Source: Microgenomates group bacterium (GTDB lineage Bacteria; Patescibacteriota; Microgenomatia; Daviesbacterales; UBA10151). Taken from it: a stretch of 64,000 bases of DNA. The notes under the pieces were generated by a model that was not told where the DNA came from, ran no database searches, and saw nothing but the letters and a program-made list of their open reading frames with translations. Numbering within the stretch: the first letter of the stretch is position 1; the number at the start of each line of letters is the position of its first letter. The stretch spans positions 512,589 to 576,588 of the forward strand of contig JBAZXP010000001.1 in NCBI GenBank assembly GCA_041659805.1, in the 5' to 3' direction. A program made the position numbers and the translations under genes. Below, one piece after another: positions 8,751 through 52,087 of this stretch.

Positions 8751-8760
8751 AAAATTTAGG

Positions 8761-8766: not shown

Positions 8767-8772
8767 ATTAGT

Positions 8773-10401: not shown

Positions 10402-10404
10402 AAG

Positions 10405-32676: not shown

Positions 32677-33539
32677 AAATTTGTTTTACTTACAGTCTTC
32701 TTTACTTTTGTCCTTTTAAAATTTAGTGTTTCATCTATTTCCTTTAATGCTATCTGCATGTGTTGAGGTTTGGGGTCGTAATAATGCCACCTGAAATCTC
32801 CCTCCATAAAAGAAACTCCTTTACCAATTATCGTATTAGCGATAATAATATTAGGTTTGCTATCGGAGATGTTTGTTAAGGCTTTTGTGATTTGATCTAT
32901 GTTATGGCCATCGATTACAGACGTACTAAAATTGAATGTTTTCCACTTTGCTTCTAAAGGTTCCATATTAATAATATCCTTTGTATTTCCTAAACCTTGG
33001 GTTCCATCTCGGTCTAAAATTACAACTAAATTGTTTAGATGATGATGTCCTGCGAATAAAGCTGCTTCCCAAATTGTACCTTCGTTAATTTCTCCATCAG
33101 AAATTAGGACATAAATTTTATATTGTTTATTCATTAATTTAGCTGCATAGGCCATGCCAACACCAACCGATAAACCATGCCCTAATGAGCCGGTCCCCCA
33201 ATCAATCCCAGGTAAACCATTTGATTCCGGATGAACCATTAATTTACCACCGTCTTGGCAGAAAGTATCTAAAGTTTCCTTATTAAAAAAACCACGATGA
33301 TGTAATACAGTAAAAAGCCCTGCTCCTGCATGACCCTTACTTAAAATAAACCGATCGCGTTCCTCCCAAAAAGGATCATTTGTACGAATATTTAAAATTT
33401 TAAAATAAAGTGTTGTTAATAGATCTATTACTGATAAAGAGGAGCCGACATGACCGATTTGGACATTATGGGAGATTGTTAACATGTCGCGTTTTATTAT
33501 TTGACACATTTTTATTAAGGAGATATTTGATTTTGACAT
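32673..33539 (-). CDS. Transketolase, N-terminal section (ThDP-binding), split form
   Basis: 'GHVGSSLSVIDLLTTLY', 'DRFILSKGHAGAGLF', 'GSLGHGLSVGVGMA', 'ISDGEINEGTIWEA'. ATGA overlap with the C-terminal section gene. Confidence 0.8.
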   Translation of the reverse strand: MSKSNISLIKMCQIIKRDMLTISHNVQIGHVGSSLSVIDLLTTLYFKILNIRTNDPFWEERDRFILSKGHAGAGLFTVLHHRGFFNKETLDTFCQDGGKLMVHPESNGLPGIDWGTGSLGHGLSVGVGMAYAAKLMNKQYKIYVLISDGEINEGTIWEAALFAGHHHLNNLVVILDRDGTQGLGNTKDIINMEPLEAKWKTFNFSTSVIDGHNIDQITKALTNISDSKPNIIIANTIIGKGVSFMEGDFRWHYYDPKPQHMQIALKEIDETLNFKRTKVKKTVSKTNL

Positions 33540-37419: not shown

Positions 37420-39216
37420 TTATTTTTGGGTGATAGACGAGGTTGATAGTTTTATAATATTGTTTACAGCTTTGGTAAAGGATTCTTTATCAAAATGCTT
37501 AAAATAGATAAGATAAAATAAATTTAAATCAGATAATTCATAGGATCCAACATTAATTTCAATAATAAATTCCGGATTTTTTACAATATATTCCTGCATG
37601 TTGTTAAGTTTATTGAATGTATTTAGGAATCCATTATTTTTAGGAAAAGAAAGTTGTTTTTCTCGAGATTCATTAATTGTTTGGTTATATGTTTTAAATT
37701 CATCAATGCTCGACCCAAATCTTTTTTCATCACCGAATGCTTTCTTCATAAAACCTGTGTATTCATAGAAAGCATAAGGCTTATGTTTTGCATTTAGATG
37801 TATGGTGTTATCAATAAAAAGAAAAGTAGTATTATTTTTTAGTTCCTGATTTCTTTTCATTTGTTCGATAACTGACATTTGTTTATATTGATCTTTGAGG
37901 AATTCTACATTTATTTTAAGATGGTAGCTTACAAACATGGCAATCAATATTGAGTAGATAGCGATTATTATATTTATTCTCACGCGTAAAAAATTACCAA
38001 TGATTTGAATTCCGTAAACGATCATGAAACTGGCCCCCAAAGGGGTCAGCAATAGGTGCCGGTCTGAGAATCCTTCAAGTATTGTGGGGATCTTATTTAC
38101 TACATAATAAGGAAAAACAGCTACATAAAAGGATATACATCCGAGAATAAATAAGATTGTATCTTTTGAATAATGTTTTTTCTTTATATCTTTAGTTTGA
38201 AGGGTGTGTCGCAAGGAAATAAAGATCGCTGTAATTCCTGAAGCAATAATTAATAGATTAGAAATAAGATTTTTTTGAAATAATGTTGCTGAAGTAATGA
38301 AAATAGTTTCTTTGAGAAGATCAAAAATATTTTTAAAGGTTAGAGGTGAGACATAAGGATGGAGCTCTAATTTTATTCCTGCTTGCCAGACTGTTGTAAT
38401 CAATGACATATTAAATAAAGAATAAAAGGAAGAGAGTAAAACAATTAGAAAAGAAAATCCATAGCCCTCAACGCTTCTATAAAAAGCAGTCAGTAGATTA
38501 AACGCAGTTATTTCATTATAGCCCTTGTTGATCTCTGGCAACGGGAAAAAATATTGCTTGTATAGAAAGAAAAATACTGGCAACAGAATAAAGTCAATAT
38601 GGTTAATGATTAAACGGCACACATCTTTTCGGGACTTTAACTGATTTTTTTGCTTGAAGGCTATATATGCAAGAATAAGGATATAAAAGAAAAGCATTGA
38701 ATTGATAGAAAATGAAAGTATTAGGGTAACCAGCGCAAGTAACCGGAAAATAACCTTTTTGTTAATTAAATAAAGAGTTGTTAACCACCAACCAAAATAG
38801 AAGAAAAAATAGCATACGCTATACCAAAGAATTACTAATACTACTCTGGCATCATTCGCCGGAAATAGCAAAAAAAAGATAGTTAATAGTAACCTTTTCT
38901 TAGAATCAATTTCTTTAATTGTGCTCAAAATTGAGTAGAAAAAATATCCAGAAAAGAGATACACGAGAAATGTCACAATGCGGTATGCAGTGAATGAATG
39001 AAAAATATTTATTGAATTAAATATATATGGAGCCAGAATCTGCCCAAATGAGTCGCATGTTGATTTTATTAGTTCCGGATCTTTGTTCACAATCACAGCC
39101 CAATCGTCCCAATAAGCACCTGAATTTAACAAAGATAGGCCGAAAGAAACAATATAAAGAATAACTATTAATATCACGTAAGATAGATGGTAATTTTTAT
39201 TGCTCTCTTTTGTCAA
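37420..39216 (-). CDS. Polytopic membrane protein (about 11 TM) with ~170 aa C-terminal soluble domain; GT-C-like, unassigned
   Basis: N-terminal 'LLNSGAYWDDWAVIVNKDPE' acidic loop after TM1, then a long hydrophobic core. No family motif recognised. Confidence 0.4.
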   Translation of the reverse strand: MTKESNKNYHLSYVILIVILYIVSFGLSLLNSGAYWDDWAVIVNKDPELIKSTCDSFGQILAPYIFNSINIFHSFTAYRIVTFLVYLFSGYFFYSILSTIKEIDSKKRLLLTIFFLLFPANDARVVLVILWYSVCYFFFYFGWWLTTLYLINKKVIFRLLALVTLILSFSINSMLFFYILILAYIAFKQKNQLKSRKDVCRLIINHIDFILLPVFFFLYKQYFFPLPEINKGYNEITAFNLLTAFYRSVEGYGFSFLIVLLSSFYSLFNMSLITTVWQAGIKLELHPYVSPLTFKNIFDLLKETIFITSATLFQKNLISNLLIIASGITAIFISLRHTLQTKDIKKKHYSKDTILFILGCISFYVAVFPYYVVNKIPTILEGFSDRHLLLTPLGASFMIVYGIQIIGNFLRVRINIIIAIYSILIAMFVSYHLKINVEFLKDQYKQMSVIEQMKRNQELKNNTTFLFIDNTIHLNAKHKPYAFYEYTGFMKKAFGDEKRFGSSIDEFKTYNQTINESREKQLSFPKNNGFLNTFNKLNNMQEYIVKNPEFIIEINVGSYELSDLNLFYLIYFKHFDKESFTKAVNNIIKLSTSSITQK

Positions 39217-39261: not shown

Positions 39262-40587
39262 ATGTTAAAAGAAATGATGGATAAATGTGACATACTGATC
39301 GTTATGTTCTTTTTTAAAGGAAGAGATGCCGAAATTATTATTCCACTTAAATATTATTTAGAAAATATATTCCATCTTAATGTAAAAGTTTGTTCAGTTT
39401 TTGATCCGTATATGATTGATATATATAATCCAGGAATTGTATTAATGGAAAATACTATTGGGTCTGAATTTCATGTCGCTTTCGGAAAATATGCTTTTAA
39501 AAAAGGATATCCTATAGTGAGTCTGGTTTCAGAAGGATATTTAACCGAACAAAATGTACAGACTGATTTATGGGGGTGTAACCTAAAGCATGAGATATAT
39601 TTCAATAAATGGTTTCTTTGGACGCCGGGTTTAAAAAGAATGGCATTAAAATATTTTCCTGACCTAAAGAAAAAAGTTGATCTTGATATCTCAGGAGCAA
39701 TTGGGTTTGATAGATATCAGATATATGATTTCGCTGATCAAAGAAAATTTTTAAAAAAATACCATAAAGAAAAATATAAAAAAGTTATCGGTTACGCAGG
39801 ATGGGTATTTTGTTCGTATTTTAATCCTAAAGAATACGAAAAACTTATTAGTGAATTCGGGCAAAAATACTTTTCCTATTTTAAAAATGATAAAGAGACA
39901 GTTAGTAATATTTTGCGTCAAATCATTAAATCAAATAAAGACACACTTTTTATTTTCAAATTGCATCCAAGCGAGATGGAAGATAATATGGATATTTCAA
40001 GAAGTTGGGCGCAAGAATTTGATAATGTTTTAGTTTTTCAAGCAGAGGAGCCTGTAGCAGATATTATCAACGTCTGTGATATTTGGATGGTTTATGATTC
40101 CACAACATGCACGGAAGCTTGGTTGTTGGGTAAGCCAACAATAGTGATTATGCCTTCACCTAACATAAAATTTCGCAGTGACTGTTATAAAGGTAGTGCG
40201 ATTGCTCGTAATTTACACCAACTTTCAGATCTTATTGATAATTATAAAGAAAAAGAGAGGGTGGAAGGTTTTTATGAGAAGAAAAAATATAGAAAAAAGA
40301 TTATAAGAGCGCTTGTTTACAGAGAAGATGGCCTTAATTTTAAAAGAACTGCAGAGAAGATTCATCAATTTCTTATGATATCTTCAAAACGCCGTGATAC
40401 TTCCCTTTTGTCTTTTAAAATTTGTTATTTAATACAACATTTATCATTGGTTTTGCTTTCTAGACTTATTTGGTTACCTTTTTTGAATAAGTCAACAATT
40501 TTAAAATGGTATAACGAACAACCAGATTTTATTAATTTAGAAAAAAAGTATACTCCTTATATTAGGAAATTCTTAAAAACATCTTAA
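39262..40587 (+). CDS. GT-B-fold transferase resembling TagB/TagF (CDP-glycerol glycerophosphotransferase) or KpsC/KpsS capsule families
   Basis: 'TLFIFKLHPSEMEDN', 'IINVCDIWMVYDSTTCTEAWLLGKPTIVI' resemble the HP catalytic motif and C-terminal Rossmann region of Glyphos_transf / Capsule_synth proteins. Assignment between the two is not possible by eye. Confidence 0.35.
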   Translation: MLKEMMDKCDILIVMFFFKGRDAEIIIPLKYYLENIFHLNVKVCSVFDPYMIDIYNPGIVLMENTIGSEFHVAFGKYAFKKGYPIVSLVSEGYLTEQNVQTDLWGCNLKHEIYFNKWFLWTPGLKRMALKYFPDLKKKVDLDISGAIGFDRYQIYDFADQRKFLKKYHKEKYKKVIGYAGWVFCSYFNPKEYEKLISEFGQKYFSYFKNDKETVSNILRQIIKSNKDTLFIFKLHPSEMEDNMDISRSWAQEFDNVLVFQAEEPVADIINVCDIWMVYDSTTCTEAWLLGKPTIVIMPSPNIKFRSDCYKGSAIARNLHQLSDLIDNYKEKERVEGFYEKKKYRKKIIRALVYREDGLNFKRTAEKIHQFLMISSKRRDTSLLSFKICYLIQHLSLVLLSRLIWLPFLNKSTILKWYNEQPDFINLEKKYTPYIRKFLKTS

Positions 40588-40591
40588 AGTT

Positions 40592-42001
40592 TTAGACAGC
40601 TCTGAAGCCGCGAAAACTAGAATCTTTATCAATGTAGAGTTTTCGTGCAGTTTTTATAGCATTTTTGCATGACTGTTTATAATATGCTTCTAGAAGGGTT
40701 TTATTTGCTTTAAATAATGCTTCATGGAATTTGTCGTCTGTCATATTTGTGAAATTAACCGCTAATAGGTCCGAATTGATGTGTTTATTTTCATAAAAAT
40801 CCTTCGGACCTTTTAATAAGCCTTTTTCTATCGCATAATAGTATAGAGGGGAACCTGGGTATGGAGTTACTGGCCGTATGGTACGGAGTTGAGCATGATC
40901 GTCGTATTTTAAAAGAAAATCGACACCTTTTTGCAACGAGGTTCTTGTTTCTCCTATGTTTCCGAAAATAATATTTAATCCGGGGCTAATTCCTACATCC
41001 AAAGTATTTTTTATTCCTTCATGGATCATTTTAATAGTTAAGCCTTTTTTCATAGTAATTAAGGCTTTTTGGTCTAAGGATTCAATGCCATAGTTTATAA
41101 AGATGCAGCCGGCTTTTTTCATGAGTTGTAAAACTTCTTTATTTGCGAAATTTAATCTGCCGTTACAATCCCATTTAAACTTCATTCCCGATTTTAATAT
41201 TCCTTCGCATAGCTCAACAGTTCTTTGTTGAGAAGACATTAACAAATCATCAGAAAAGGTAATTGCTGTAATATTGTAATCAGTTTGAAGTTTTTTAACT
41301 TCTTCTAAAATATTTCCTATTGATCTTGGTCTGAACCCTTTATCCATTCTGTAGCAGAAATTACACTGAAAAATACATCCTCTCCCTGAAAGAACGGGCA
41401 TTAGACGATCGCTTCTTAGTATATTGGGGGTTCGGTATAAAGAATAATGATTTATCGGAAATAATTCCCAAGAGGGAAAATCGATTTTATCTATATCTGT
41501 AATTAACGGTCTGGGCGGATTTATTACATATTTCTTGCCGTCTCTGTAGGCAATTCCATTAATGGGAGAAAGCGAGTGTTTCCCTGCAAGCGCCTTCATT
41601 ACTTCGAGAATAGTAATCTCTCCTTCTCCTCTGACGATAATGTCAGCACCGGTCTTTTTCAGAAAATATTCCGGTTCAGGTGCAGGCCCATGGCCACCTA
41701 ATATATAAATAGGACGTCTTTTTGATTTATTGATAGCATCAGAAAGTTTAAGAAGCTTTTGGTATTGATAATAACCTGCAATTACACTAACTCCGATTAC
41801 ATCAAAATGTTCTCTATCTAATAGGTCTGTGAGATGTTGTTCAGGCCAATGATAAATATCTTGATTATATACAGTAACATCGTAGCCAGCCTTTATTAGC
41901 GGTGTTGCAATGTATGCGAGTCCCTGAGGGAACCAGGAGACTAAAGAATCATTATCATAAACGACAAGAAGAACGCGACCTATATTTTTTTTGGCTTTCA
42001 T
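40592..42001 (-). CDS. B12-binding-domain radical SAM enzyme (class B)
   Basis: N-terminal 'RVLLVVYDNDS ... DVIGVSVIAGY' B12-binding-like domain, 'LSGRGCIFQCNFCY' (CxxxCxxC). Confidence 0.8.
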   Translation of the reverse strand: MKAKKNIGRVLLVVYDNDSLVSWFPQGLAYIATPLIKAGYDVTVYNQDIYHWPEQHLTDLLDREHFDVIGVSVIAGYYQYQKLLKLSDAINKSKRRPIYILGGHGPAPEPEYFLKKTGADIIVRGEGEITILEVMKALAGKHSLSPINGIAYRDGKKYVINPPRPLITDIDKIDFPSWELFPINHYSLYRTPNILRSDRLMPVLSGRGCIFQCNFCYRMDKGFRPRSIGNILEEVKKLQTDYNITAITFSDDLLMSSQQRTVELCEGILKSGMKFKWDCNGRLNFANKEVLQLMKKAGCIFINYGIESLDQKALITMKKGLTIKMIHEGIKNTLDVGISPGLNIIFGNIGETRTSLQKGVDFLLKYDDHAQLRTIRPVTPYPGSPLYYYAIEKGLLKGPKDFYENKHINSDLLAVNFTNMTDDKFHEALFKANKTLLEAYYKQSCKNAIKTARKLYIDKDSSFRGFRAV

Positions 42002-42088: not shown

Positions 42089-42883
42089 ATGAATAATATG
42101 GATAAAAGAATTAAATATTGGGAAAAAAACTATGTTGAATATTGGAAAGATAGGGTTAGCGATAATTCTAAAAACAATTTAGCTAAAAAAGATGTTTTAC
42201 CGCCTGATTTAAAAATATTTAAAAAATATTATAAAAAAGCTCTTAGCTATATAAATAAAAATTCTCCCACAATTCTTGATATAGGAATTGGCTTCGGAAG
42301 GTTTGCTCCTCTTTATAAAGAAAATTTTGAATCTAATATATGGGGTAGTGATATTTCCCAAGGAATGGTGGATGAATGTAAAAAGAATTATCCTGAAATA
42401 TCCAAACAGATTAAAACAGCACCTGCTGAAACTCAGCCATTTAAAGACGCAAGCATGGATTTAATTATTTGTTGGGCAACTTTTGATGCTACCTTTCAGG
42501 ACAAAACATTATGGGAATTTCAAAGACTTTTAAAAATAGGAGGTTTGGCTTTAATTACAGGAAAAAATGACAAGTATCTTGCAACTGATAAGAAAGCACT
42601 AACAGCTGAAATTAATGCACGTAAAAAGGGTCATCCGAATTATTTTACTGACATTAATTTTCTCGAACAACACATTAAAGATTTCGGTTTTGAGATTGTA
42701 AAACTATTTAAATTTAAAAGAAGAGGGGATTTTGCAAACGATTTAAGTACGAATGAATCCTCTCGAAAATTTTATGAATATATTTTGATTTTGAGAAAAA
42801 CTGCACAGGGTAAAAATAAGCACAAGATTGCCTCAAAATTTAGTAAAGTCTATAAACAAATAGATAAAACAATAGGTGAATAG
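42089..42883 (+). CDS. Class I SAM-dependent methyltransferase
   Basis: 'ILDIGIGFGRFAPLY', 'IWGSDIS', 'MDLIICWATFD'. Confidence 0.65.
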   Translation: MNNMDKRIKYWEKNYVEYWKDRVSDNSKNNLAKKDVLPPDLKIFKKYYKKALSYINKNSPTILDIGIGFGRFAPLYKENFESNIWGSDISQGMVDECKKNYPEISKQIKTAPAETQPFKDASMDLIICWATFDATFQDKTLWEFQRLLKIGGLALITGKNDKYLATDKKALTAEINARKKGHPNYFTDINFLEQHIKDFGFEIVKLFKFKRRGDFANDLSTNESSRKFYEYILILRKTAQGKNKHKIASKFSKVYKQIDKTIGE

Positions 42884-42885
42884 AT

Positions 42886-43749
42886 ATGGCATATTTTGCA
42901 ATAATTTTGAGTTTAACCTTTTGGTCTATTACTCAAATTATTCTCAAATCCATTGTTGATAAATTACCCAAGTCGAAGGCTCTCATCGCTCAATATATAA
43001 TTTCATTTTTATTCATCGTATTTTATGCGATCTTCACAGAACAAATCCAAATGGAAATAGGATTTTTTTTAATCACATTCGCAGGTTTTCTGAGCTCTAT
43101 CGGAGCTTATTTTCAATGGAGAGCATATAAAATTAGTCTAAGCAAGACAGGGTTATTTATGCCATTTATGAATATTATTGCTGCAATATTAACAGCAATA
43201 TTTTTGAAAGAAAAATTCCTTTATTCGAATATCGAATTTGTTTTAGGAGTTATTTTTTCTTTTATTGCTTCTTTTTTACTCGTTAGAAAGAAATCAAATG
43301 ATAAAAGTAAACTTGATTTGGAATGGTTATTTTCAGTTTTTGGGATGATAATTTTTACAGGAATCACATTATTTCTAATGAAAGTTTTTTCTTTTTCTAT
43401 ATCCAGGACTCAATTTTTAATTTACTGGTATTTGGGAGCAATTTTAGGTTCTGCAATATTTTTATGGGCAGGAAGGCACGATCAAAATAAATTATTTCAA
43501 AAAGGTTTTTGGAAAATTCCGTTAGCCAGCATAGGAACCTTAGGAACTTTGGCGGCTTTATATTGGGCTTTCCAAATTGCTCCTGCAGCTATAGTATTGC
43601 CTATACAGGCATTCGGGACTGCTTTTATTCCATTAATTTTAGGATTAGCAATTTTTAAAGAAAGAAAAATTTTGACAAAATATGAGATAATCGGTTTCTT
43701 ATTTGGAGCAATTGGAGTTGCACTAATTATAGTAAGCGGAAGAACATAA
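42886..43749 (+). CDS. 10-TM EamA/DMT-superfamily-like transporter
   Basis: Two internally repeated 5-TM halves, each ending with short charged loops. No ATP-binding motif. Confidence 0.45.
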   Translation: MAYFAIILSLTFWSITQIILKSIVDKLPKSKALIAQYIISFLFIVFYAIFTEQIQMEIGFFLITFAGFLSSIGAYFQWRAYKISLSKTGLFMPFMNIIAAILTAIFLKEKFLYSNIEFVLGVIFSFIASFLLVRKKSNDKSKLDLEWLFSVFGMIIFTGITLFLMKVFSFSISRTQFLIYWYLGAILGSAIFLWAGRHDQNKLFQKGFWKIPLASIGTLGTLAALYWAFQIAPAAIVLPIQAFGTAFIPLILGLAIFKERKILTKYEIIGFLFGAIGVALIIVSGRT

Positions 43750-43751
43750 AT

Positions 43752-44477
43752 ATGTATAAAAAGAAGAAAATAATTTTGACAATTTGTGCTAGAGGTGGCT
43801 CTAAAGGTTTACCTGGGAAAAATACGAAAAATCTTTTAGGAAAACCGCTAATAGCTTATTCTATAGAACAAGCTAAGACTCTTAGTTGGATAGACCGGAT
43901 AGTAATTTCAACTGATGATAAAGAAATAAAAAAGGTAGCAGAAAAAATGGGAGTAGAGGTACCATTTATGAGACCTGCAGCATTAGCTACAGATGTAGCT
44001 CCTAAAATCCCCGTATTTTTGCACGCTATTCAAGAAGCCGAAAAATATTGGAATGAGAAATATGATATTTGGGTGGATTTAGATGCTACCAGTCCTTTAC
44101 GCTTTACAGACGATATTAAAAAAACCATTGATCTTTTGTTTGCTCGTGATACATTGTCAGTCATCACAGCAATGGAGTCTCATCATAATCCTTATTATAA
44201 TATGGTAGAAATGGATGACCAAAAATATGTTTCTGTATCAAAGAAGCTTTCACAATCTGTTACAAGGAGACAGGATGCTCCGAAGGTATATGCCATGAAC
44301 GGGAGCATTTATGTTATGTGGAGGGACGAACTTCTTAAACGAGGAACCTTTTTTACCAATAAGACAAAATTGTATATTATGCCTCCTGAAAGATCTTTTG
44401 ATATAGATAATTTGGTAGATTTTGAAATAGTTAAGCTTTATTTAAAGCAGCGGGTAAAAAAGGAAAAAACTAATTAA
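43752..44477 (+). CDS. CMP-nonulosonic acid synthetase (acylneuraminate cytidylyltransferase family, NeuA/LegF-like)
   Basis: 'IILTICARGGSKGLPGKNTKNLLGKPLIAYSIEQA', 'IVISTDDKEIKKVAEKMG' are classic CTP_transf_3 signatures. 241 aa with no C-terminal esterase domain. Confidence 0.85.
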   Translation: MYKKKKIILTICARGGSKGLPGKNTKNLLGKPLIAYSIEQAKTLSWIDRIVISTDDKEIKKVAEKMGVEVPFMRPAALATDVAPKIPVFLHAIQEAEKYWNEKYDIWVDLDATSPLRFTDDIKKTIDLLFARDTLSVITAMESHHNPYYNMVEMDDQKYVSVSKKLSQSVTRRQDAPKVYAMNGSIYVMWRDELLKRGTFFTNKTKLYIMPPERSFDIDNLVDFEIVKLYLKQRVKKEKTN

Positions 44478-46086
44478 TTGTTTTCCTGGAATGTTTGGCA
44501 TAATAATCATTTACCATTTTTTCAACTATTTTAATTTTTTGTCCTAAAGTTTCTCCCCGTTCGCGATCCTTTTTTGTAACCAGTTTTCCCAGTCTATGCT
44601 TACCACGACAGGCATAAAGAATTTCTTTAGGTGTGTAATCGGCTTTTTTGCCATTAATATCGCTGGCAAATAACCCTGCGGCGTCCCATAAGGTCATGGT
44701 TGTCCAGGCATCCAGATCTCCTGTCCATTTCAACTTTCCTTCTTCTATCATCACTGCAAGTTGTGTACTTGGCAGAGGGGTACAGATTGAAATCATGGCA
44801 TATACAGCGCCTTTCTTTTCCAATTTCTGGATATATTTTAATGTTTCAAGAGTTTGTTGGGGGGTTTCTCCGGGGAGACCAACCATGTTTAATAATTTCA
44901 CTTCGATGCCCGCTTTAGCCATCGCCTCAGTCGCATCCTCTATAGTTTTATTAGAAATCATTTTTCCTATTGCTTGATACCTTAATATTTCGCTGCCTGT
45001 TTCAGGTGCGATGTGTAATTGACGACAGCCTGCTTTATATATTAGTTGCAAAAGATTCATTTTACGTCCTTTGTAAGTAACTTTATACTCAGCGGCTCTT
45101 GTAACTAAATTTGCTCTGGTAATAGCTGTCCAAATACAGCCTTTAAGTTTAGGATTTTCTAAAATCATTCGTGCGGTTTTTTCTACTACATCCAGTTGCA
45201 CTAAATAAAGATCATCAGTAAGATAAAAATCCACGACACCTAATTTTTTTAAATATTCCATATGTTTAATAATATTTTTAGGTGTTAGCCCTCTCCATTT
45301 ATGACCCGATACTTCCTGGTCACAAAAAAAGCATGCGTTAGGGCATCCCCGGGAAGTAAGCATGGCAAGTTGAAATTCTCCTTTTTGAGGAGTGAATTCA
45401 GAGAGATGATATTTGGTTAAATCACCCAGCAGCTCATATTCAGGAATCGGAATTTTATTAATATCTTCTATCCTTTCAGCATGTTTAGGCCAGTCAATTT
45501 TTTTACCCAAATCTTTAATGTTTTGGGTTAATCTGGTATACCCACGAACCTTATCCTTTACATAATGCAGTTTACCTTTTTTATCTTTGAATACAATTCC
45601 CGGCACTTTTTTCAATAATTTTTGATTACCCCAATTTTTAATTAAAATAGGAGTAACTAATTCGCCTTCACCGACAACCTCATAGGAAAAGATGTCACCA
45701 TATTTTTCCATTGTTCTTACCGGAACTGCACTTGGGTGAGGGCCTCCCAAAAACTGCCGGTATTTTGATGATTTTTCTTTAAGTTTTTTGGCAATCCGCG
45801 CAGTTTTATCAATTGTAGTTATCCATCCAGCCCATCCCACATACCCTCCATCCGGCATTATTTCCAGTATTCTATCTACTGTTTCATCTTCAGTTAACAA
45901 TTCCTTATCTGCATCAAGAACAGCAACTTTGAACCCCTGTTTTTTTAAGCATGTCGCTACGCATAAGATTCCGACAGAAGGTATACTGTGTGCACCACCC
46001 CTTGCTTTAAGTTCGGGAATATCTCTTTCGGCAAATGAATTAGGAGCCACAAGTACGATATCAGGAGTAATAATTTTTTTAGCCAT
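44470..46086 (-). CDS. B12-binding-domain radical SAM enzyme (class B)
   Basis: 'SRGCPNACFFCDQ' (CxxxCxxC) preceded by a ~240 aa B12-binding-type domain. 3' end overlaps the NeuA-like gene by 8 bp, convergently. Confidence 0.8.
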   Translation of the reverse strand: MAKKIITPDIVLVAPNSFAERDIPELKARGGAHSIPSVGILCVATCLKKQGFKVAVLDADKELLTEDETVDRILEIMPDGGYVGWAGWITTIDKTARIAKKLKEKSSKYRQFLGGPHPSAVPVRTMEKYGDIFSYEVVGEGELVTPILIKNWGNQKLLKKVPGIVFKDKKGKLHYVKDKVRGYTRLTQNIKDLGKKIDWPKHAERIEDINKIPIPEYELLGDLTKYHLSEFTPQKGEFQLAMLTSRGCPNACFFCDQEVSGHKWRGLTPKNIIKHMEYLKKLGVVDFYLTDDLYLVQLDVVEKTARMILENPKLKGCIWTAITRANLVTRAAEYKVTYKGRKMNLLQLIYKAGCRQLHIAPETGSEILRYQAIGKMISNKTIEDATEAMAKAGIEVKLLNMVGLPGETPQQTLETLKYIQKLEKKGAVYAMISICTPLPSTQLAVMIEEGKLKWTGDLDAWTTMTLWDAAGLFASDINGKKADYTPKEILYACRGKHRLGKLVTKKDRERGETLGQKIKIVEKMVNDYYAKHSRKTIN

Positions 46087-46124
46087 GATTGCGAAATTAT
46101 AGCATAAGGAAAGTCATCATAAAA

Positions 46125-47291
46125 TTATATTTCAAAGACTTTCGTAAAAGTATTTCCTTCTAAATCATGAGCTGCTATGCCAGCAGTTTTACCCCTATCT
46201 TCCGGAATTAAATTATATTCCCATGTATCCTTGTCTTTTTTAAACATTGGCTTCCAAATATAGATATTTTTACTATATTTAATTGCTAAAAAAGGCTGGT
46301 GGTTATATAAGCTTTTGTTGGTTTTAATTTGTATTTTTTCCGATTCTTTTTTAATCCTAAGTTTTAAAATTTTTCCTGATCGGATTTTCTGAAACATTTT
46401 TATGGCATCTTTGCCTGAGGTATATGAAAATTTAATCCCAGTTTTTTTTGAGGATTCTGAAATCCATTGCATGATTTGTTCAAATTCATGAGCTCGGTCA
46501 CGAAAATCATGATCAAAAACAGATAAAATAATATCAGAATTTTTTGCATCTTTAAAAGCTTTCAAAATTTCTTCTTTTATAACGGTATGTGCACCAGATT
46601 TAACATCCAAGGAGCGGATGATCAACCTTTTCATTTTTCCAGAGACTGTAAAATCAACTTCTGACGGATGATATGGAATCCAATTGTTTGGAGCTTTGTG
46701 CCAGCTAAGCAAGTCTCTCAATTTATTACCATCCGCTTCAATTTTCTCCCAGTTTATATTACTGCCATTTCTATTTGAATAGTCATAAGGAATCCACTGT
46801 TCTAACCAATTAGATTGATTAGTATCTTCGATTGTTCCGCCCGAACGATAAACTATCGGAAAGAACTTTCGATCAATGATAAATCTGCATAATTGATTTT
46901 CATATTCACGGTTTGTAAACCAGTTTAAACCCCATTCATTTCCAATCCCGGTTATTGAAGCATGGTGATAGTGCCAGCCAATTTCATCTTGATACTTTTT
47001 GATCTGTTTACCCCATTTTTTTAAATAATGGTCATAAACTTTATGATAACCGAGTTCATGTTGAATGGGGTTTGTAAGAAATCCTGTCCAATTTAACATA
47101 AACCAGGTGAAAACTGCAGGCTTTCCGGTACTATCGGGAAATGAATAACGGAAATTATCAGAAAAGACTTTTGATAAAAATATTTTATCAATATCTTTCC
47201 AACTACCTAAAAGTTGGGAAGGTTGATGATAGTTTGGGTCTGTGAAAGGTCCTTCAGTATCAATACAAAAAACAACAAAAACTCTATTCAT
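46125..47291 (-). CDS. Hypothetical protein; possible divergent polysaccharide-deacetylase/(beta/alpha)-barrel hydrolase-like
   Basis: 'VFVVFCIDTEGP' and His-rich 'WHYHHASITG' recall metal-dependent CE4-type deacetylases, but no firm motif match. Confidence 0.3.
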   Translation of the reverse strand: MNRVFVVFCIDTEGPFTDPNYHQPSQLLGSWKDIDKIFLSKVFSDNFRYSFPDSTGKPAVFTWFMLNWTGFLTNPIQHELGYHKVYDHYLKKWGKQIKKYQDEIGWHYHHASITGIGNEWGLNWFTNREYENQLCRFIIDRKFFPIVYRSGGTIEDTNQSNWLEQWIPYDYSNRNGSNINWEKIEADGNKLRDLLSWHKAPNNWIPYHPSEVDFTVSGKMKRLIIRSLDVKSGAHTVIKEEILKAFKDAKNSDIILSVFDHDFRDRAHEFEQIMQWISESSKKTGIKFSYTSGKDAIKMFQKIRSGKILKLRIKKESEKIQIKTNKSLYNHQPFLAIKYSKNIYIWKPMFKKDKDTWEYNLIPEDRGKTAGIAAHDLEGNTFTKVFEI

Positions 47292-47323
47292 TTATTTTTA
47301 TTTGTGATATTCTACCACATATT

Positions 47324-48373
47324 ATGATGGAAATTGGCGAAAAAAAGATTGGTGGAAATAATCCTGTATTCATTATTGCCGAAGCTGGTGTAAATCACAA
47401 TGGTAAGTTAGATTTAGCTCTGCAGCTGGTTGACGTTGCTGCAGCATCCGGAGCTGATGTTATAAAATTTCAAACCTTCAAAGCAGAACAAGTAGCAACT
47501 GAAAAAGGGGAAATGGCTGATTATCAAAAAGCTAACTTGGGTAAAGTGGAATCTCAACAGGATATGCTCAGGAAGCTTGAGCTAAAAGAACAATTTTATG
47601 AACCTATTATTAAAAGATGCAAGGAAAAGAATATCATGTTTCTTTCTACACCTCATGGGGGAGTAGAAAGTGTAGATTTTTTAGAAAATTTGGGAGTGGA
47701 GGCATTTAAGGTAGGATCAGGTGACTTAACCAATTACTTACTTTTAAACAGACTGGCAAAAACCAAAAAACCTGTAATTCTAAGTTCAGGAATGGCAACT
47801 TTAAAAGAAGTTATTGATGCAGTTGAATTCATAAAAAGCAAAGGTTGTAAAAAGTTAGCAATGCTTCACTGCACCACCGATTATCCGTGTTCTTCCGAGA
47901 AAGTGAATATGGCCTCAATGGTTACCATGATGAAAAGATTAGATGTTCCTGTAGGATATTCTGATCATACTCAAGGTGTTGTTGCAGCTATTATGGCAAC
48001 AACACTGGGTGCAACAATTTATGAATGCCATTTCACTGTAGATAAAAAATTACCTGGTCCTGATCATGTCGCTTCAGTTAGTCCTGAAGAACTAAAAATG
48101 AGAATAGATGCCATAAGGGACGTAGGAGTAATGATGGGGAGCGCCAAAAAGGTTCCTAATAAAAGTGAATTGAAATTAATTTCAATTGTAAGAAGAAGTA
48201 TTGTAGCTGCATCAGATTTATCCTCAGGGCATTTGTTAACGCTTAAAGATTTAGAAGCAAAAAGACCGGGTGATGGTATTTCTCCGAAAGAATACGAAAA
48301 GCTTTTAGGGAAAACTCTCAAGAATGATTTATCAAAAGATCAACAGATCCAAAAAACTGATATTAGACACTAG
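47324..48373 (+). CDS. Nonulosonic acid synthase (NeuB/LegI/PseI family)
   Basis: 'NPVFIIAEAGVNHNGKLDLALQLVDVAAASGADVIKFQTF' is the classic NeuB N-terminus. C-terminal SAF domain 'IVAASDLSSGHLLTLKDLEAKRPGDGI'. Confidence 0.9.
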   Translation: MMEIGEKKIGGNNPVFIIAEAGVNHNGKLDLALQLVDVAAASGADVIKFQTFKAEQVATEKGEMADYQKANLGKVESQQDMLRKLELKEQFYEPIIKRCKEKNIMFLSTPHGGVESVDFLENLGVEAFKVGSGDLTNYLLLNRLAKTKKPVILSSGMATLKEVIDAVEFIKSKGCKKLAMLHCTTDYPCSSEKVNMASMVTMMKRLDVPVGYSDHTQGVVAAIMATTLGATIYECHFTVDKKLPGPDHVASVSPEELKMRIDAIRDVGVMMGSAKKVPNKSELKLISIVRRSIVAASDLSSGHLLTLKDLEAKRPGDGISPKEYEKLLGKTLKNDLSKDQQIQKTDIRH

Positions 48374-48420: not shown

Positions 48421-49569
48421 GTGAGAAAAAGAAAAATTGCATATATAACTGGTACAAGAGCAGATTATGGTTTAATGACCCCTGTTTTGCGAAGTATTGA
48501 AGAAAGCAAAAAATTAGAACTCCAACTTTATACAACTGGTATCCATTTAATGCCGCAATTTGGTGAAACAGCTAAATTAGTTAAAAAAGAATTTCCACAA
48601 ACAAGAAGAATCAAAGCAATTTTTAAAACAGATGAAAAATCCAGCGTGGTTGATTTTTCCGGACTTTATATTAATTTATTGAACAAGGTTTTTAAAAAGG
48701 ATAAACCGGATATTGTCTTAATTTTGGGTGATAGGGTAGAGATGCTATGTACGGCAATGGTTTGTTTATATTTAGGAATTCCTACTGCACATATTCACGG
48801 AGGAGAGAAAACTTTTACAGTTGATGAGGTTTCCCGTCATGCAATTTCTAAAATTTCTAGTTTGCATTTTCCTGCAACAAAAGAATCTGCCGAAAGAATT
48901 CTAAAAATGGGGGAAGAAAAATGGCGGATACATGTAGTTGGAGCCCCGACATTGGATAGTATCTTAAATAAAAAACTACCAACAAGAATAGAAGTTCTTG
49001 AAAAATTAAGTATGGATCCAAAGCAAAAATTTATTTTGGTAGTTCAACATCCAGTGAGCAGTGAAATGAAAGATTCGGGTTATCAAATGCAAGAAACAAT
49101 TACTGCAGTAAAAGAAATTAATTTGCCCGTTGTGATAATTTATCCCCATCCTGATCCGGGTGGGAGAAAGATTATTAAAATTATAGAAAAAGAAAAGAAT
49201 AACCCATTATTTCATATTTTCCCGAACATAGATTTTGAATCGTTTTTAGCACTGGAGCGCGAAGCAATAGTTTGGGTAGGTAATAGCAGTGCAGCGATGA
49301 TAGAGTCGTCATCTTTTAAAACTCCAGTGGTAAATATCGGTACGAGACAGATCGGTAGACAGCGGGGAGAAAATGTAATTGATGTAGGATATAACAGAAA
49401 AAATATCTTAATAGCCATAAAAAAATCCTTGACTGATAAGTCATATCTTGCTAAGCTGCAAACTATCAAGAATCCTTGGGGAGATGGTAAAACAGGATCA
49501 AGGATTGTCCGAATTTTGGAAGAAATTGAAATTAACTCCAAAATATTAATCAAACAAATAACATATTAA
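48421..49569 (+). CDS. Hydrolysing UDP-sugar 2-epimerase (NeuC/LegG family)
   Basis: 'KIAYITGTRADYGLMTPVL', 'ILGDRVEMLCTAMV', 'HIHGGE' are the NeuC-type Epimerase_2 signature. GTG start with an 'AAAGGGA' motif 6 nt upstream. Confidence 0.8.
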   Translation: MRKRKIAYITGTRADYGLMTPVLRSIEESKKLELQLYTTGIHLMPQFGETAKLVKKEFPQTRRIKAIFKTDEKSSVVDFSGLYINLLNKVFKKDKPDIVLILGDRVEMLCTAMVCLYLGIPTAHIHGGEKTFTVDEVSRHAISKISSLHFPATKESAERILKMGEEKWRIHVVGAPTLDSILNKKLPTRIEVLEKLSMDPKQKFILVVQHPVSSEMKDSGYQMQETITAVKEINLPVVIIYPHPDPGGRKIIKIIEKEKNNPLFHIFPNIDFESFLALEREAIVWVGNSSAAMIESSSFKTPVVNIGTRQIGRQRGENVIDVGYNRKNILIAIKKSLTDKSYLAKLQTIKNPWGDGKTGSRIVRILEEIEINSKILIKQITY

Positions 49570-51095
49570 TGCACGATAATTTTAAAAATTGGAAACTGCC
49601 TAAATTTAATAAAACTGGCATGACCAAATGGAATTGGATGTGTCAATATCACGAAAATCTTAAATTAGGCAAATACACAGATATAGGCGCTTTTACTTAT
49701 ATTAATGCTAATTTTGGAGTCGAGATAGAAGATTATGTAGAGATCGGTTCGGGGTGTAGTATTTATTCTAACAATACTATCGACGGAATAACCGGAAAAA
49801 TTGTTATCAAAAAAAATGCTAAAATCGGAGCTCATTGTACCATTATGCCAGGAGTAACAATCGGAGAGAACTCTTTGATTGGAGCATATAGTTTTGTAAA
49901 GAACGATATCCCCGCAAATTGTACGGCATTCGGAATTCCGGCTAAAGTTATTAAAAAAACCAACCGGCATAACGATAAGATTCAGATTGCCAAGCCGTTC
50001 ATTGATGAAACTGATAAAAGAGCTGTAATGGACGTTTTGGAATCAGGTTGGCTTTCATTGGGTCCAAAATATAAGGAATTTGAAACCAATATAGCTTCGT
50101 ATACCAGTGCAACTTATGCTTGTGCGGTATCCAGTGGTACTTCAGGACTTCATTTGGCAGTCATTGCACTGGGATTAAAAGCAGGAGATGAGGTAATTAC
50201 TACACCATTTTCTTTTGTAGCCTCATCGAATTGTCTAATATACGAAGGGGTAAAACCGGTATTTGTTGATATAGAAGAAGAGACTTTTAATTTAGATCCT
50301 GATAAAATCGAAGCGGCAATAACAAAAAGAACAAAAGCAATTTTAGTTGTACATATCTTCGGTCAATCCGCGCGGATGGATAAGATTTTGAAAATTGCTA
50401 AAAAATATAAACTGAAAGTTATTGAGGATTCATGTGAGAGTTTGGGCGCCAGGTTCCAAGATAAGATGACAGGAACATTCGGAGATATCGGTGTTTATTC
50501 TTTTTACCCCAATAAACAAATGACTACAGGAGAAGGAGCGGTAATTGTTACAAATTCAAAAAAGTTATATGAATTATGTGATAGTTTGAGAAATCAGGGT
50601 AGAGGTTTAAGAGAGTCTAAAAAAGGGAAAGATTGGGATTGGCTCATGAGTGAAAGGGTAGGATATAACTACCGGATGGATGAAATGAGCGCTGCGCTTG
50701 GAGTGACACAACTCCAAAAAATTGATTGGATGATTGGTGAAAGAAGGAAAATTGTAGATCTATATAAAAAATATTTAGGAGAAATGGAAAGTATTATGGT
50801 TCCCATAATAGGTAAAAACAGAACCCATACATGGTTTGTATATGTCATTAGAGTGTTGAATAACAAACGAGATAAATTAATGAGCGATCTATCTGCTTCG
50901 GGTATTCAAGTAAGACCCTATTTACCGGCAATTCACTTACAATCGTTTATGAAAAAAATGTTCGGTTTTAAAAAGGGAGATTTTCCTGTAACCGAAAATA
51001 TTTCCTCCCAGACACTTGCGCTACCTTTTTATATTGGATTAGCAGAAGATGATATTAAATATATAGCAAATAAAATAAGGGAATCGCTTAAATGA
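49569..51095 (+). CDS. Fused left-handed-beta-helix N-acetyltransferase (PglD/LegH-like) plus DegT/DnrJ/EryC1 PLP-dependent sugar aminotransferase (PglE/LegC-like)
   Basis: Residues ~40-150 are hexapeptide repeats ('IGSGCSIYSNNTIDG', 'IGAHCTIMPGVTIGENSLIGAYSFV'). Residues ~160-508 are 'DVLESGWLSLGPKYKEFE', 'SFYPNKQMTTGEGA' (PLP-Lys region), 'YYRMDEMSAALG'. Confidence 0.8.
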   Translation: MHDNFKNWKLPKFNKTGMTKWNWMCQYHENLKLGKYTDIGAFTYINANFGVEIEDYVEIGSGCSIYSNNTIDGITGKIVIKKNAKIGAHCTIMPGVTIGENSLIGAYSFVKNDIPANCTAFGIPAKVIKKTNRHNDKIQIAKPFIDETDKRAVMDVLESGWLSLGPKYKEFETNIASYTSATYACAVSSGTSGLHLAVIALGLKAGDEVITTPFSFVASSNCLIYEGVKPVFVDIEEETFNLDPDKIEAAITKRTKAILVVHIFGQSARMDKILKIAKKYKLKVIEDSCESLGARFQDKMTGTFGDIGVYSFYPNKQMTTGEGAVIVTNSKKLYELCDSLRNQGRGLRESKKGKDWDWLMSERVGYNYRMDEMSAALGVTQLQKIDWMIGERRKIVDLYKKYLGEMESIMVPIIGKNRTHTWFVYVIRVLNNKRDKLMSDLSASGIQVRPYLPAIHLQSFMKKMFGFKKGDFPVTENISSQTLALPFYIGLAEDDIKYIANKIRESLK

Positions 51096-52087
51096 ATGAT
51101 TTCCGTACTACTTTTAAAAACAAAAGAATTTTGGTTACAGGAGGTACTGGTTCGATTGGTAGTGAAATTGTCAGACAACTAATTCCTTTAAAACCTAAAC
51201 AAATCAGGATTTATTCGAGAGATGAATCAAAACAATACCAACTACAGCATGAACTAAGTTACTTTACTAACAATAAAGATATTTTACGTTTTTTGATCGG
51301 AGATATTCGGGATAAAGAAAGATTGAAAAGAGCCTTTAATGATATAGATATTGTTTTTCATGCAGCTGCGCTAAAACATGTGCCCTTTTGCGAAGATAAC
51401 CCCTTTGAAGCCACAAAAACTAATGTTCAAGGTACCCAAAACGTCCTAGATTTAGCGATTGACCATAGGGTAGAAAAAGTAATAGCTATTTCATCTGATA
51501 AAGCTGTAAATCCAAACACGTTTATGGGAATAACTAAATTAATGATGGAAAGAATGGTGATTTCTGCTGCTAACTACTCAGGGCAACTGGAAACTAAATT
51601 CGCTGCGGTAAGATTTGGTAATGTTATCAATTCAAGGGGTTCTGTGATTCCTTTGTGGATAGATCAAATAAAAAAGGGTGGGCCGGTTACTGTAACAGAT
51701 AAAAAGATGGAAAGATATTTTATGACTATTAGAGATGCTGTAAATCTTATATTTATGTCCACAAAAATTATGTTGGGAAAGGAGATCTTTGTTCTTAAAA
51801 TGTCTAAGTGTAATATCTATGAATTAGCTCAAGAAGTAATTGATCGTTATAGTAGTGGTAAGTTAATTAAAATAAAGATTACTGGTTCTAGAATAAGAGA
51901 AAAATTAGACGAACGTTTATATACAGATGAAGAAGAACAATTGATGATTGATGCGGGATTGTTTAATATTATTCAACCAACTATGGAGGACCTCAAAAAA
52001 CGATTATCTAAATATAATATTAGCAAAAAAAATAGAAATATTAAAATTGCCGATATATTTGATTCACTTCCAAAATTAAACAACTAG
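51092..52087 (+). CDS. UDP-GlcNAc 4,6-dehydratase (Polysacc_synt_2; PseB/PglF/CapD type)
   Basis: 'KRILVTGGTGSIGSEIVRQL', 'FLIGDIRDKERL', 'VFHAAALKHVPFCEDNPFEATKTNVQGT', 'ISSDKAVNPNTFMGITK', 'VRFGNVINSRGSVIPLW'. Confidence 0.85.
   Translation: MNDFRTTFKNKRILVTGGTGSIGSEIVRQLIPLKPKQIRIYSRDESKQYQLQHELSYFTNNKDILRFLIGDIRDKERLKRAFNDIDIVFHAAALKHVPFCEDNPFEATKTNVQGTQNVLDLAIDHRVEKVIAISSDKAVNPNTFMGITKLMMERMVISAANYSGQLETKFAAVRFGNVINSRGSVIPLWIDQIKKGGPVTVTDKKMERYFMTIRDAVNLIFMSTKIMLGKEIFVLKMSKCNIYELAQEVIDRYSSGKLIKIKITGSRIREKLDERLYTDEEEQLMIDAGLFNIIQPTMEDLKKRLSKYNISKKNRNIKIADIFDSLPKLNN

Follow-up and report, generated by a model that had tools for sequence, protein, structure and literature searches.

The window analyzed here, a 64,000-nucleotide stretch of a Microgenomates (CPR) genome, contains a plus-strand legionaminic-type nonulosonic acid (NulO) cluster that is split by two minus-strand genes, rSAM_A and U388. 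On one side of these genes lie a class-I SAM-dependent methyltransferase (42089 to 42883; Pfam Methyltransf_11/25/23), an EamA/DMT-family membrane transporter within the NulO operon (42886 to 43749; two PF00892 repeats), and a CMP-NulO synthetase, a LegF/PseF/NeuA-like cytidylyltransferase (43752 to 44477; PF02348 CTP_transf_3, 79 bits; TIGR03584 PseF, 155 bits, under the cut-off). On the other side are the NeuB synthase (47324 to 48373; TIGR03569, 421.7 bits) and the NeuC hydrolyzing 2-epimerase (48421 to 49569; TIGR03568, 397.2 bits), both over their cut-offs, followed by a hexapeptide acetyltransferase-DegT aminotransferase fusion (49569 to 51095; hexapeptide repeat and PF01041) and a 4,6-dehydratase (51092 to 52087; Polysacc_synt_2, PF02719). 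The full Leg-type gene set (NeuB, NeuC, 4,6-dehydratase, aminotransferase, N-acetyltransferase, and CMP-transferase) is present. The dehydratase scores higher with the PseB model (299 bits) than with the LegB model (78 bits), both under cut-off, and the assignment of the cluster as legionaminic-type covers legionaminic acid and its epimers alike.

U388 (46125 to 47291, minus strand) encodes 388 amino acids and lies upstream of rSAM_A (44470 to 46086, minus strand; 538 amino acids), with a spacer of 38 bp read from the sequence. Between U388 and the neuB ATG at 47324 there is only a divergent, AT-rich intergenic region of 32 bp (47292 to 47323), and at the opposite end the rSAM_A stop (reverse-complement TAG, 44470 to 44472) and the cytidylyltransferase stop (TAA, 44475 to 44477) produce an 8-bp convergent overlap. 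Re-reading of the open reading frames and junctions showed that the original prediction had described both minus-strand genes, the overlap, the gap, and the common plus strand of the NulO genes correctly to the base. Promoter and terminator scans of the locus gave nothing above chance, and an Rfam scan of the window yielded neither a cobalamin riboswitch nor any other family. Beyond the dehydratase, a Wzx-type flippase (52111 to 53682, minus strand) and a further B12-domain radical SAM gene, rSAM_C (53784 to 55466, plus strand), are syntenic in a Daviesbacteria relative, and rSAM_C has an 83% ortholog at the equivalent position in locus L001. Two more B12-domain radical SAM genes, rSAM_B (40592 to 42001, minus strand; found with Pfam) and one at 28559 to 30142 (minus strand; found in the window survey), bring the total to four within a glycan island of ~60 kb, which also encodes other sugar pathways, many glycosyltransferases, and methyltransferases. 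The original prediction had missed these three radical SAM genes and the methyltransferase at 42089 to 42883.

rSAM_A was predicted to be a B12-domain radical SAM enzyme, and this identity is borne out by a radical SAM core (PF04055, 72.7 bits; cut-off, 29.5) and an N-terminal B12-binding-type Rossmann domain (PF02310, 56 bits; cut-off, 32), the domain structure of class B. The CxxxCxxC motif of rSAM_A (C247/C251/C254) shows no variation across the alignment. Among the class B cobalamin-dependent radical SAM methylases are Fom3 and GenK. Compared with other such methylases (TokK, CysS, MgmA/QCMT, and TsrM), rSAM_A reaches none of the NCBIfam methylase equivalog models. Among solved structures, the nearest and the one with top fold similarity is AprD4 (PDB 6fd2), a radical SAM 1,2-diol dehydratase of apramycin biosynthesis that shares 19% identity with rSAM_A and acts on a different substrate class. 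Since AprD4 carries the B12-binding-type domain as well and yet is cobalamin-independent, a B12-dependent methylase role for rSAM_A is only a candidate. rSAM_A is confined to one clade, in which the U388-rSAM_A unit is kept at 54 to 85% identity. The idea that the radical SAM gene beside U388 is a single orthologous partner was rejected, because the one in locus L006 is 59% identical to rSAM_B and 24% to rSAM_A; that in L002 shows 27 to 30% identity to both.

U388 belongs to a small, unannotated family of ~500 to 700 clusters. As the original prediction had stated, the protein, with its CIDTEGP and WHYHH motifs, is unclassifiable by sequence: it has no match in Pfam (including the PIG-L model, PF02585), NCBIfam, or the PDB (phmmer), and its alignment profile finds no CE4 or other match in the PDB. 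None of 37 alignment members matches PF01522, even at an E value of ≤1, and hhalign of U388 against a PF01522 protein from locus L004 gave a probability of 0.1. The predicted structure nevertheless allows a confident assignment to the NodB/CE4 deacetylase fold, a distorted (beta/alpha)7 barrel, with a C-terminal Ig/FN3-like beta-sandwich; the remote identity of U388 is thus that of a deacetylase fold rather than a noncarbohydrate function, the outcome that would have spoken against the original prediction. Residues D11/E13, H107/H109, R149, D170, and H261/D262 are 96 to 100% conserved among 120 homologs and lie at the C-terminal ends of successive barrel strands in CE4 order, as judged by secondary-structure position and conservation. 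Their spacings are D-x-E and H-x-H, versus the canonical H-x3-H of CE4 enzymes, whose five catalytic motifs supply an Asp-His-His metal triad, an Asp base, and a His acid. Strand 1 begins at residue 3, and there is no signal peptide, suggesting a cytoplasmic enzyme and fitting action at the nucleotide-sugar level. On the basis of the modeled fold, U388 is a putative cytoplasmic metallo-amidohydrolase (N-deacylase).

The U388 family is specific to NulO clusters and occurs in many bacterial phyla and two archaeal MAGs. Homologs within such clusters were found in CPR, Omnitrophota, Proteobacteria, Anaerolineae, Acidobacteriota, Ignavibacteria, Actinomycetes, and one Nitrosopumilaceae archaeon, together with NeuB, NeuC, cytidylyltransferase, DegT, dehydratase, and PtmE/PtmF/PtmA-like genes. 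NeuB lies within 10 kb of the U388 homolog in 19 of ~20 nonredundant loci, and in three loci (L010, L002, and L028) U388 sits midway in a co-directional NulO operon. All 27 genome matches are uncultured MAGs, with no cultured carrier among them.

Which protein is the usual partner of U388? Throughout the family, it is consistently accompanied by a class-I SAM methyltransferase rather than by a radical SAM enzyme. Fusions of an N-terminal U388 with a C-terminal methyltransferase account for 42 of the 120 top homologs, and the methyltransferase is fused to or within 25 bp of U388 in 14 loci. In the rSAM_A clade it is 2 to 4 kb away, as in L034, where an ortholog of the window methyltransferase lies 3.4 kb from U388, past rSAM_A and the cytidylyltransferase. 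With the L034 gene included, orthologs of the window methyltransferase span 34 to 58% identity; the others adjoin U388 in L002, L006, L008, L010, L028, and L033. The fused methyltransferase is not the same as that of the window, a possibility we rejected, since the two belong to different class-I subfamilies; the use of two distinct subfamilies suggests that the coupling of U388 to methylation arose more than once. The radical SAM partner, in contrast to this constant association, is of type A, type B, or SPASM type or is absent. The original view of the radical SAM enzyme and the unknown protein as a functional pair thus holds in one small clade but not across the family. In L023, a U388-like gene lies 9 bp from a formyltransferase gene.

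U388 can be compared with several known systems. CE4/NodB deacetylases, such as H. pylori HP0310 PgdA, P. aeruginosa PA1517, insect chitin deacetylases, Agd3, and the deformylase ArnD, differ from U388 in sequence (no match to PF01522 or solved structures), in motifs (TFDD and H[ST]xxH versus D-T-E-G-P and W-H-Y-H), and in setting; they act on polymers, whereas U388 is a predicted cytoplasmic protein with an additional C-terminal beta-sandwich, encoded in nucleotide-sugar/NulO operons. PIG-L (LmbE-type) and formyltransferase genes in Leg-type clusters provide another likeness, a deacetylase gene adjoining an N-modifying transferase gene; in Wukongibacter (L121) they lie between NeuC and the cytidylyltransferase. 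The PIG-L fold and family (PF02585) are unrelated, the partner is a formyltransferase rather than a methyltransferase, and the roles are putative there also; the analogy between U388 and the L121 PIG-L gene would be one of position and function only. TIGR03573 is presumably the NCBIfam model of the PtmG/PseA-type N-acetyl sugar amidotransferase family. Campylobacter PtmG (Cj1324) and PtmH (Cj1325/6) resemble the U388-methyltransferase couple in that a protein of ~375 amino acids and an adjoining SAM methyltransferase in a Leg cluster modify an N-acyl group of CMP-Leg. According to the literature, PtmG is an amidotransferase that turns an N-acetyl into an acetimidoyl group; homology was rejected because U388 matches no NCBIfam model and its fold is that of a NodB hydrolase, and PtmG, compared here by its published description, would be a functional analogue at most. 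A bifunctional analogue of the couple is the heparan sulfate N-deacetylase/N-sulfotransferase NDST, which differs in its polymer substrate, Golgi location, and transfer of sulfate instead of methyl and has no sequence relationship to U388. For "Candidatus Kuenenia," whose Leg cluster has a deacetylase and a formyltransferase, a preprint (bioRxiv 10.64898/2026.04.20.719630) reports chemical evidence of free-amine, N-formyl, and +14-Da forms of CMP-NulOs.

The window's strongest link between radical SAM enzymes and NulOs is rSAM_B, outside the region covered by the original prediction. It is 64 to 73% identical in Desulfoscipio, Heliobacterium, Wukongibacter, Kuenenia, Nitrospirae, and Omnitrophica, and adjoins or sits within Leg operons (L039, L040, L121, and L006), among them flagellin glycosylation islands of cultured Firmicutes. 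In the Wukongibacter Leg operon (L121), it is located between DegT and PtmE. Of 44 metagenomic rSAM_B loci that span 8 kb or more, 29 include NeuB and 15 lack it within the flank; the Kuenenia locus (L037) is a glycan island with no NeuB within the 20 kb fetched. Overall, rSAM_B forms a radical SAM module of its own that is widely conserved and strongly associated with NulO clusters. No publication that we found connects radical SAM enzymes with the synthesis of NulOs.

Taken together, we favor the following reading as a whole, with a probability of roughly 60%: both minus-strand genes are conserved tailoring genes of a CPR legionaminic-type NulO pathway. U388 would most likely remove an N-acyl (acetyl) group from a 5,7-diacetamido NulO or its nucleotide-linked form, and the class-I methyltransferase at 42089 to 42883 would then probably modify the freed amine by N-methylation, the two acting, in the order we infer, as a couple that deacetylates and then redecorates. 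The best PDB matches of this methyltransferase are phosphoethanolamine N-methyltransferases (E value, 1e-5), a weak hint of N-methylation, and the acceptor may be N, O, or C. rSAM_A, probably cotranscribed with U388, would contribute another radical reaction on this sugar, which might be cobalamin-dependent C-methylation or else a radical elimination of the AprD4/DesII type. The expected product would be a CMP-NulO derivative not yet described.

Could the two genes instead be a recent and unrelated insertion, such as mobile element cargo? Their orientation opposite to the flanking genes and the very short intergenic regions might give this impression, and the original prediction spoke of an inserted pair. 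The divergent layout is, however, a stable architecture: comparison of homologous NulO loci revealed the identical arrangement in relatives whose proteins share the 54 to 85% identity given above, which refutes a recent insertion. No direct or inverted repeats flank the pair other than AT-rich chance matches, its GC content (0.33 to 0.38) does not break from that of its surroundings (0.34 to 0.35), and the window annotation contains no transposase or integrase. Insertion is therefore ruled out for practical purposes, and the claim that the pair represents accessory genes of the NulO pathway stands. It is also quite improbable that the pair targets another sugar of the 60-kb island, or the assembled glycan, and that its NulO position is incidental. 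The other sugar pathways, the many glycosyltransferases and methyltransferases, and the four radical SAM enzymes of the island mean that the latter could act on those sugars, and the rSAM_B loci without NeuB, including that of Kuenenia, point the same way. Yet U388 retains its NulO surroundings across phyla while the rest of the island changes, it is central in co-directional NulO operons, and it has no secretion signal; rSAM_B, for its part, is embedded in the Wukongibacter Leg operon.

Two further alternatives concern the chemistry. Instead of being a deacylase, U388 might hydrolyze another bond, for example as an O-acetyl esterase or as a glycosidase-type enzyme (GH57/GH38-like) or NDP-sugar hydrolase that assists at the NeuC/PseG step or takes its place. 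NeuC was not found in the fetched flank of several U388 loci, which would allow a different hydrolytic role, but we regard this as unlikely. A more serious, though still doubtful, alternative is that rSAM_A is a cobalamin-independent radical lyase like AprD4 or DesII and not a methyltransferase. A free amine (via U388) or a diol would then undergo radical 1,2-elimination (deamination or dehydration) to a keto-deoxy NulO, and reduction by a dehydrogenase would give a deoxy or deamino NulO. As few B12-domain radical SAM structures have been solved, the closest of them, AprD4, is a coarse guide, and with the NCBIfam AprD4 model (NF033070) rSAM_A scores just 45.8 bits and rSAM_B 87.8 bits against a cut-off of 500. 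Moreover, the units of the window and L036 lack such a dehydrogenase, and a search for an AprD3-like reductase elsewhere in the window turned up nothing orthologous to the adh_short gene of L001 or the 2-Hacid_dh gene of L034. To our knowledge, legionaminic acid has no vicinal diol, which also counts against the lyase.

NulOs (sialic, legionaminic, and pseudaminic acids) cap flagellins, S-layers, capsules, and LPS and control charge, phage recognition, and immune recognition. The NulO tailoring known to us is limited to N-acyl variants and acetimidoyl, O-acetyl, and O-methyl groups. The locus points to an unannotated NodB-fold family dedicated to NulO clusters, whose coupling or fusion to a methyltransferase recurs, to radical SAM enzymes as a repeated feature of NulO pathways, and to candidate genes for NulOs detected by mass spectrometry but unassigned, namely, free-amine, methylated, and "C10-backbone" forms. 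A tentative joint reading, less likely than not, is that radical SAM enzymes of the highly conserved rSAM_B family, along with paralogs restricted to one clade, rSAM_A being an example, carry out C-C chemistry (C-methylation or chain extension) on CMP-legionaminic-type sugars, leading to the so far unexplained "C10" and +14-Da-series ulosonic acids that mass spectrometry has revealed in environmental bacteria, and that U388-methyltransferase is a new bifunctional N-deacetylase/N-methyltransferase yielding zwitterionic, N-methylated NulOs. If so, radical SAM chemistry would have its first example in the sialic acid family, found both on the flagellins of cultured Firmicutes and at the surface of CPR cells. 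The occurrence of four B12-domain radical SAM enzymes in one glycan island of a CPR genome with a largest contig of 1.1 Mb raises the question of the cofactor source. In three cultured species, Wukongibacter baidiensis, Desulfoscipio geothermicus, and Heliobacterium chlorum, rSAM_B lies within or next to the Leg operon, making the radical SAM question directly testable.

The nonulosonic acid (NulO) genes of the window lie on the plus strand and comprise a CTP_transf_3 cytidylyltransferase (43752-44477), NeuB (47324-48373; TIGR03569, above cut-off), a NeuC-type hydrolysing 2-epimerase (48421-49569; TIGR03568, above cut-off), a hexapeptide acetyltransferase-DegT aminotransferase fusion (49569-51095) and a Polysacc_synt_2 4,6-dehydratase (51092-52087), the domain assignments without a TIGR number coming from Pfam/NCBIfam. 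Between the cytidylyltransferase and neuB, the ORF map reproduced exactly the two minus-strand ORFs of the original prediction: a 538-aa radical SAM protein (44470-46086; here rSAM_A) with a B12-binding domain (PF02310) and a radical SAM core (PF04055, both by Pfam/NCBIfam), and a 388-aa protein (46125-47291; here U388). Read from the sequence, the junctions are an 8-bp convergent overlap of rSAM_A with the cytidylyltransferase, a 38-bp spacer between U388 and rSAM_A, and a 32-bp divergent gap between U388 and neuB. This pair had been described as inserted into the operon, which is wrong. The layout NeuC-NeuB(-)/U388(+) rSAM_A(+)/cytidylyltransferase(-) MTase(-), where MTase is the class-I SAM methyltransferase found at 42089-42883(+) in the window, is present in a Daviesbacteria genome, whose orthologs of the two pair proteins are 76% and 84% identical. 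Three metagenomic contigs share it as well, with an rSAM of only 54 to 58% identity, indicating that the divergent layout is a stable architecture. Recent insertion is thus ruled out by shared synteny, and the other checks agree: the GC content of the pair (0.33 to 0.38) is the same as that of its neighbours, and no flanking repeats beyond AT-rich chance matches were found. A scan around the pair showed no enrichment of promoter-like or terminator-like sites.

U388 has no Pfam or NCBIfam match, and a signal peptide is absent. A word-indexed search returned 604 homologs. When 1.84 billion cluster representatives were searched exhaustively with a profile, 718 clusters scored E <= 1e-3, of which 507 reached <= 1e-10 and 292 reached <= 1e-30; U388 represents a real, small and unannotated family. 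The AlphaFold2 model, built from a 37-sequence alignment (pLDDT 94.2, pTM 0.93), has an N-terminal beta/alpha barrel (approximately residues 1 to 300) and a C-terminal beta-sandwich (approximately 310 to 387), and Foldseek is consistent with a NodB-fold assignment. Counted from Met1, residues D11, E13, D53, D87, D102, H107, H109, R149, D170, H261 and D262 are 96 to 100% conserved among 120 homologs and are located at the C-terminal ends of successive model strands, in the order of motifs 1 to 5 of CE4, the NodB deacetylase class; the spacings D-T-E and H-Y-H differ from canonical CE4. None of the sequence methods tried links the family to PF01522. Given the fold and the conserved residues in the absence of a PF01522 match, we name U388 a NodB-fold putative metallo-amidohydrolase outside PF01522. 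Many family representatives (P0343-P0420, P0430, P0443) are 430 to 460 aa long, extended by ~70 aa at the N-terminus, and a few members are giant multidomain proteins of 1000 to 1660 aa; these extended and giant proteins may constitute a separate subfamily that is possibly secreted.

Thirty-six U388 loci were fetched and mapped with probes from the window (L-numbers denote fetched comparison loci). NeuB lies within 10 kb of U388 in 19 of about 20 non-redundant loci with usable flanks, and the other neighbours form a legionaminic-type set: NeuC, cytidylyltransferase, DegT, 4,6-dehydratase, PglD-like acetyltransferase and PtmE-, PtmF- and PtmA-like genes. The bacterial hosts include CPR, Omnitrophota, Proteobacteria, Anaerolineae, Acidobacteriota, Ignavibacteria, Actinomycetes and Sandaracinaceae, and the archaeal ones Nitrosopumilaceae and Woesearchaeota; every host genome found is a MAG. 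Relatives scoring below 100 bits have no NulO context at their loci. A class-I SAM methyltransferase is the constant companion of U388: 42 of the 120 best homologs carry it as a C-terminal fusion, and in 14 loci the two are either fused or no more than 25 bp apart. Orthologs of the window MTase (34 to 58% identity) flank U388 in several phyla (L002, L006, L008, L010, L028 and L033); in the rSAM_A clade the MTase is 2 to 4 kb from U388, with rSAM_A and the cytidylyltransferase in between (3.4 kb for the ortholog in L034). The fused domain belongs to a class-I subfamily other than that of the window MTase, indicating that the coupling of U388 to methylation came about in at least two ways. The radical SAM partner, unlike the MTase, is variable: type A adjoins U388 only in the clade of the window, type B or B-like proteins do so in L006 and L002, a SPASM type does so in Omnitrophota, and nine loci have none. 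Hence, the proposal that the radical SAM protein and U388 form a conserved functional unit does not hold. The L008 locus (contig CAZCNP010000002.1), from a MAG labelled "uncultured Gammaproteobacteria", encodes U388 and MTase proteins 60% and 48% identical to those of the CPR window, which could reflect horizontal transfer or faulty binning or labelling. A conserved protein of 420 to 433 aa without Pfam match flanks the MTase in CPR relatives (L001:14299-15564, L034:13271-14572, L035:3719-4987, L028:7958-9220), and the window gene at 39262-40587 shows faint similarity (29 bits) to the L028 copy.

From fold, conservation, fusion and synteny, from which all functions at this locus are inferred, we judge that the original prediction was right to give the pair a role in NulO tailoring and to involve a deacetylase-like step. 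Since a NodB-fold hydrolase is locked to an MTase inside a 5,7-diacetamido-NulO operon, the simplest suggestion is N-deacetylation followed by amine methylation: U388, a putative cytoplasmic hydrolase, would remove an N-acetyl group from the 5,7-diacetamido-NulO, and the MTase would then methylate the freed amine. The best solved relatives of the MTase are, weakly (E 1e-5), phosphoethanolamine N-methyltransferases. Three analogies support this reading. On a Saccharibacteria contig (L023:543-2560), a formyltransferase lies 9 bp downstream of a U388-like gene (29% identity), an arrangement mirroring the PIG-L deacetylase and formyltransferase (L121:15362-16908) located between NeuC and the cytidylyltransferase in the legionaminic acid (Leg) operon of Wukongibacter baidiensis, a cultured Firmicute. 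The Leg cluster of Ca. Kuenenia likewise has a deacetylase and a formyltransferase; its CMP-NulOs are reported to carry one free amine and one N-formyl group and to include +14 Da species, and deacetylation was concluded to take place at the nucleotide-sugar level (2026 preprint, bioRxiv 10.64898/2026.04.20.719630). For the Kuenenia S-layer, an earlier preprint described an unmasked amine and NulO fragments in a 261/275/289 series. In Campylobacter, PtmG and PtmH make up a pair positionally analogous to U388 and MTase, but PtmG is described in the literature as an amidotransferase and U388 is unrelated to it.

rSAM_A combines the canonical cluster motif with an N-terminal domain of B12 type and approaches no NCBIfam equivalog. 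Its family is tiny, with eight proteins exceeding 50% identity and the next at 26%. C-methylation is our leading reading, with a probability of about 0.4. Methylation is not assured because AprD4 has the same Rossmann domain but is not known to use cobalamin. A radical elimination of the AprD4/DesII type on the amine exposed by U388 is the second, somewhat less probable option. It would fit the dehydrogenases inserted in the U388-rSAM_A unit at two of the four loci of this clade: in L001 (9212-9997) an SDR immediately precedes U388, and in L034 (9026-9934) a D-2-hydroxyacid dehydrogenase lies between U388 and rSAM_A, encoded on the other strand. These insertions recall the AprD4/AprD3 couple, but the window has no ortholog of either dehydrogenase.

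A second B12-domain radical SAM protein of the window, rSAM_B (40592-42001, minus strand), is 59% identical to the U388-adjacent radical SAM protein of a proteobacterial locus and 64 to 73% identical to proteins of Desulfoscipio geothermicus, Heliobacterium chlorum, W. baidiensis, Desulfitobacterium, Sulfuricella, Nitrospirae, Omnitrophica, Brocadiaceae and Ca. Kuenenia. This conservation across very distant phyla is far above that of the NulO core enzymes. Its gene is found next to or within legionaminic-type operons, some of them in the flagellin glycosylation islands of cultured Firmicutes: after flagellins and a Maf protein and before a full Leg operon in D. geothermicus, divergent from the Leg operon in H. 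chlorum, and between DegT and PtmE within it in W. baidiensis. Among 44 metagenomic rSAM_B loci with a length of 8 kb or more, NeuB is present in 29, the cytidylyltransferase in 23, a SPASM-type radical SAM gene in 14 and U388 in none, indicating that rSAM_B and U388 plus MTase are separate NulO accessory modules co-occurring in the window. The SPASM-type protein (~305 aa), encoded after the CMP-NulO cytidylyltransferase at the U388 loci of Omnitrophota (e.g., L004:12977-13894) and recurring in those 14 rSAM_B loci (e.g., L050, L069 and L104), is a third radical SAM type associated with NulO clusters. Full-text searches turned up no paper that ties radical SAM enzymes to the synthesis of nonulosonic or legionaminic acids or to the glycosylation of flagellin; the window cluster is a NulO cluster with enzyme families previously unconnected to such clusters. 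Unassigned C10-backbone CMP-ulosonic acids and a +14 Da series were reported in M. gryphiswaldense (bioRxiv 10.64898/2026.04.20.719630), and a link to the NulO-associated radical SAM proteins is attractive but speculative.

In Ca. Kuenenia stuttgartiensis (L037:1-21389), the rSAM_B ortholog is found in a glycan island with four B12-domain radical SAM proteins, a further radical SAM protein, several methyltransferases, an LIC12162-family protein (PF27859) and a YfhO-like protein, with no NeuB within the 20 kb fetched around it; LIC12162-like genes follow rSAM_B in 4 of the 44 metagenomic loci. The window glycan island encodes four B12-domain radical SAM proteins in one CPR genome, the third and fourth being rSAM_C (53784-55466, plus strand) and 28559-30142 (minus strand). 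The former has an 83% syntenic ortholog in L001, the Daviesbacteria relative, and similar genes in 6 of the 44 rSAM_B loci. A CPR lineage is not expected to make cobalamin.

Other genes of the island include an EamA/DMT-family transporter (42886-43749, plus strand) between the MTase and the CMP-NulO synthetase, from the same superfamily as eukaryotic CMP-sialic acid transporters, and four sizeable proteins without Pfam match (37420-39216 and 58091-60187, minus strand; 39262-40587 and 20583-21944, plus strand). Three tandem paralogous PMT/PMT_2 (ArnT/PMT-like GT-C) glycosyltransferases of ~530 to 540 aa each are located at 7137-11994 (plus strand). A split transketolase pair (31750-33539, minus strand), consisting of an N-terminal half and a pyrimidine/C-terminal half, adjoins an SDR epimerase/dehydratase, a GT2 and a methyltransferase, suggesting a two-carbon-transfer or branched-sugar pathway in the island.
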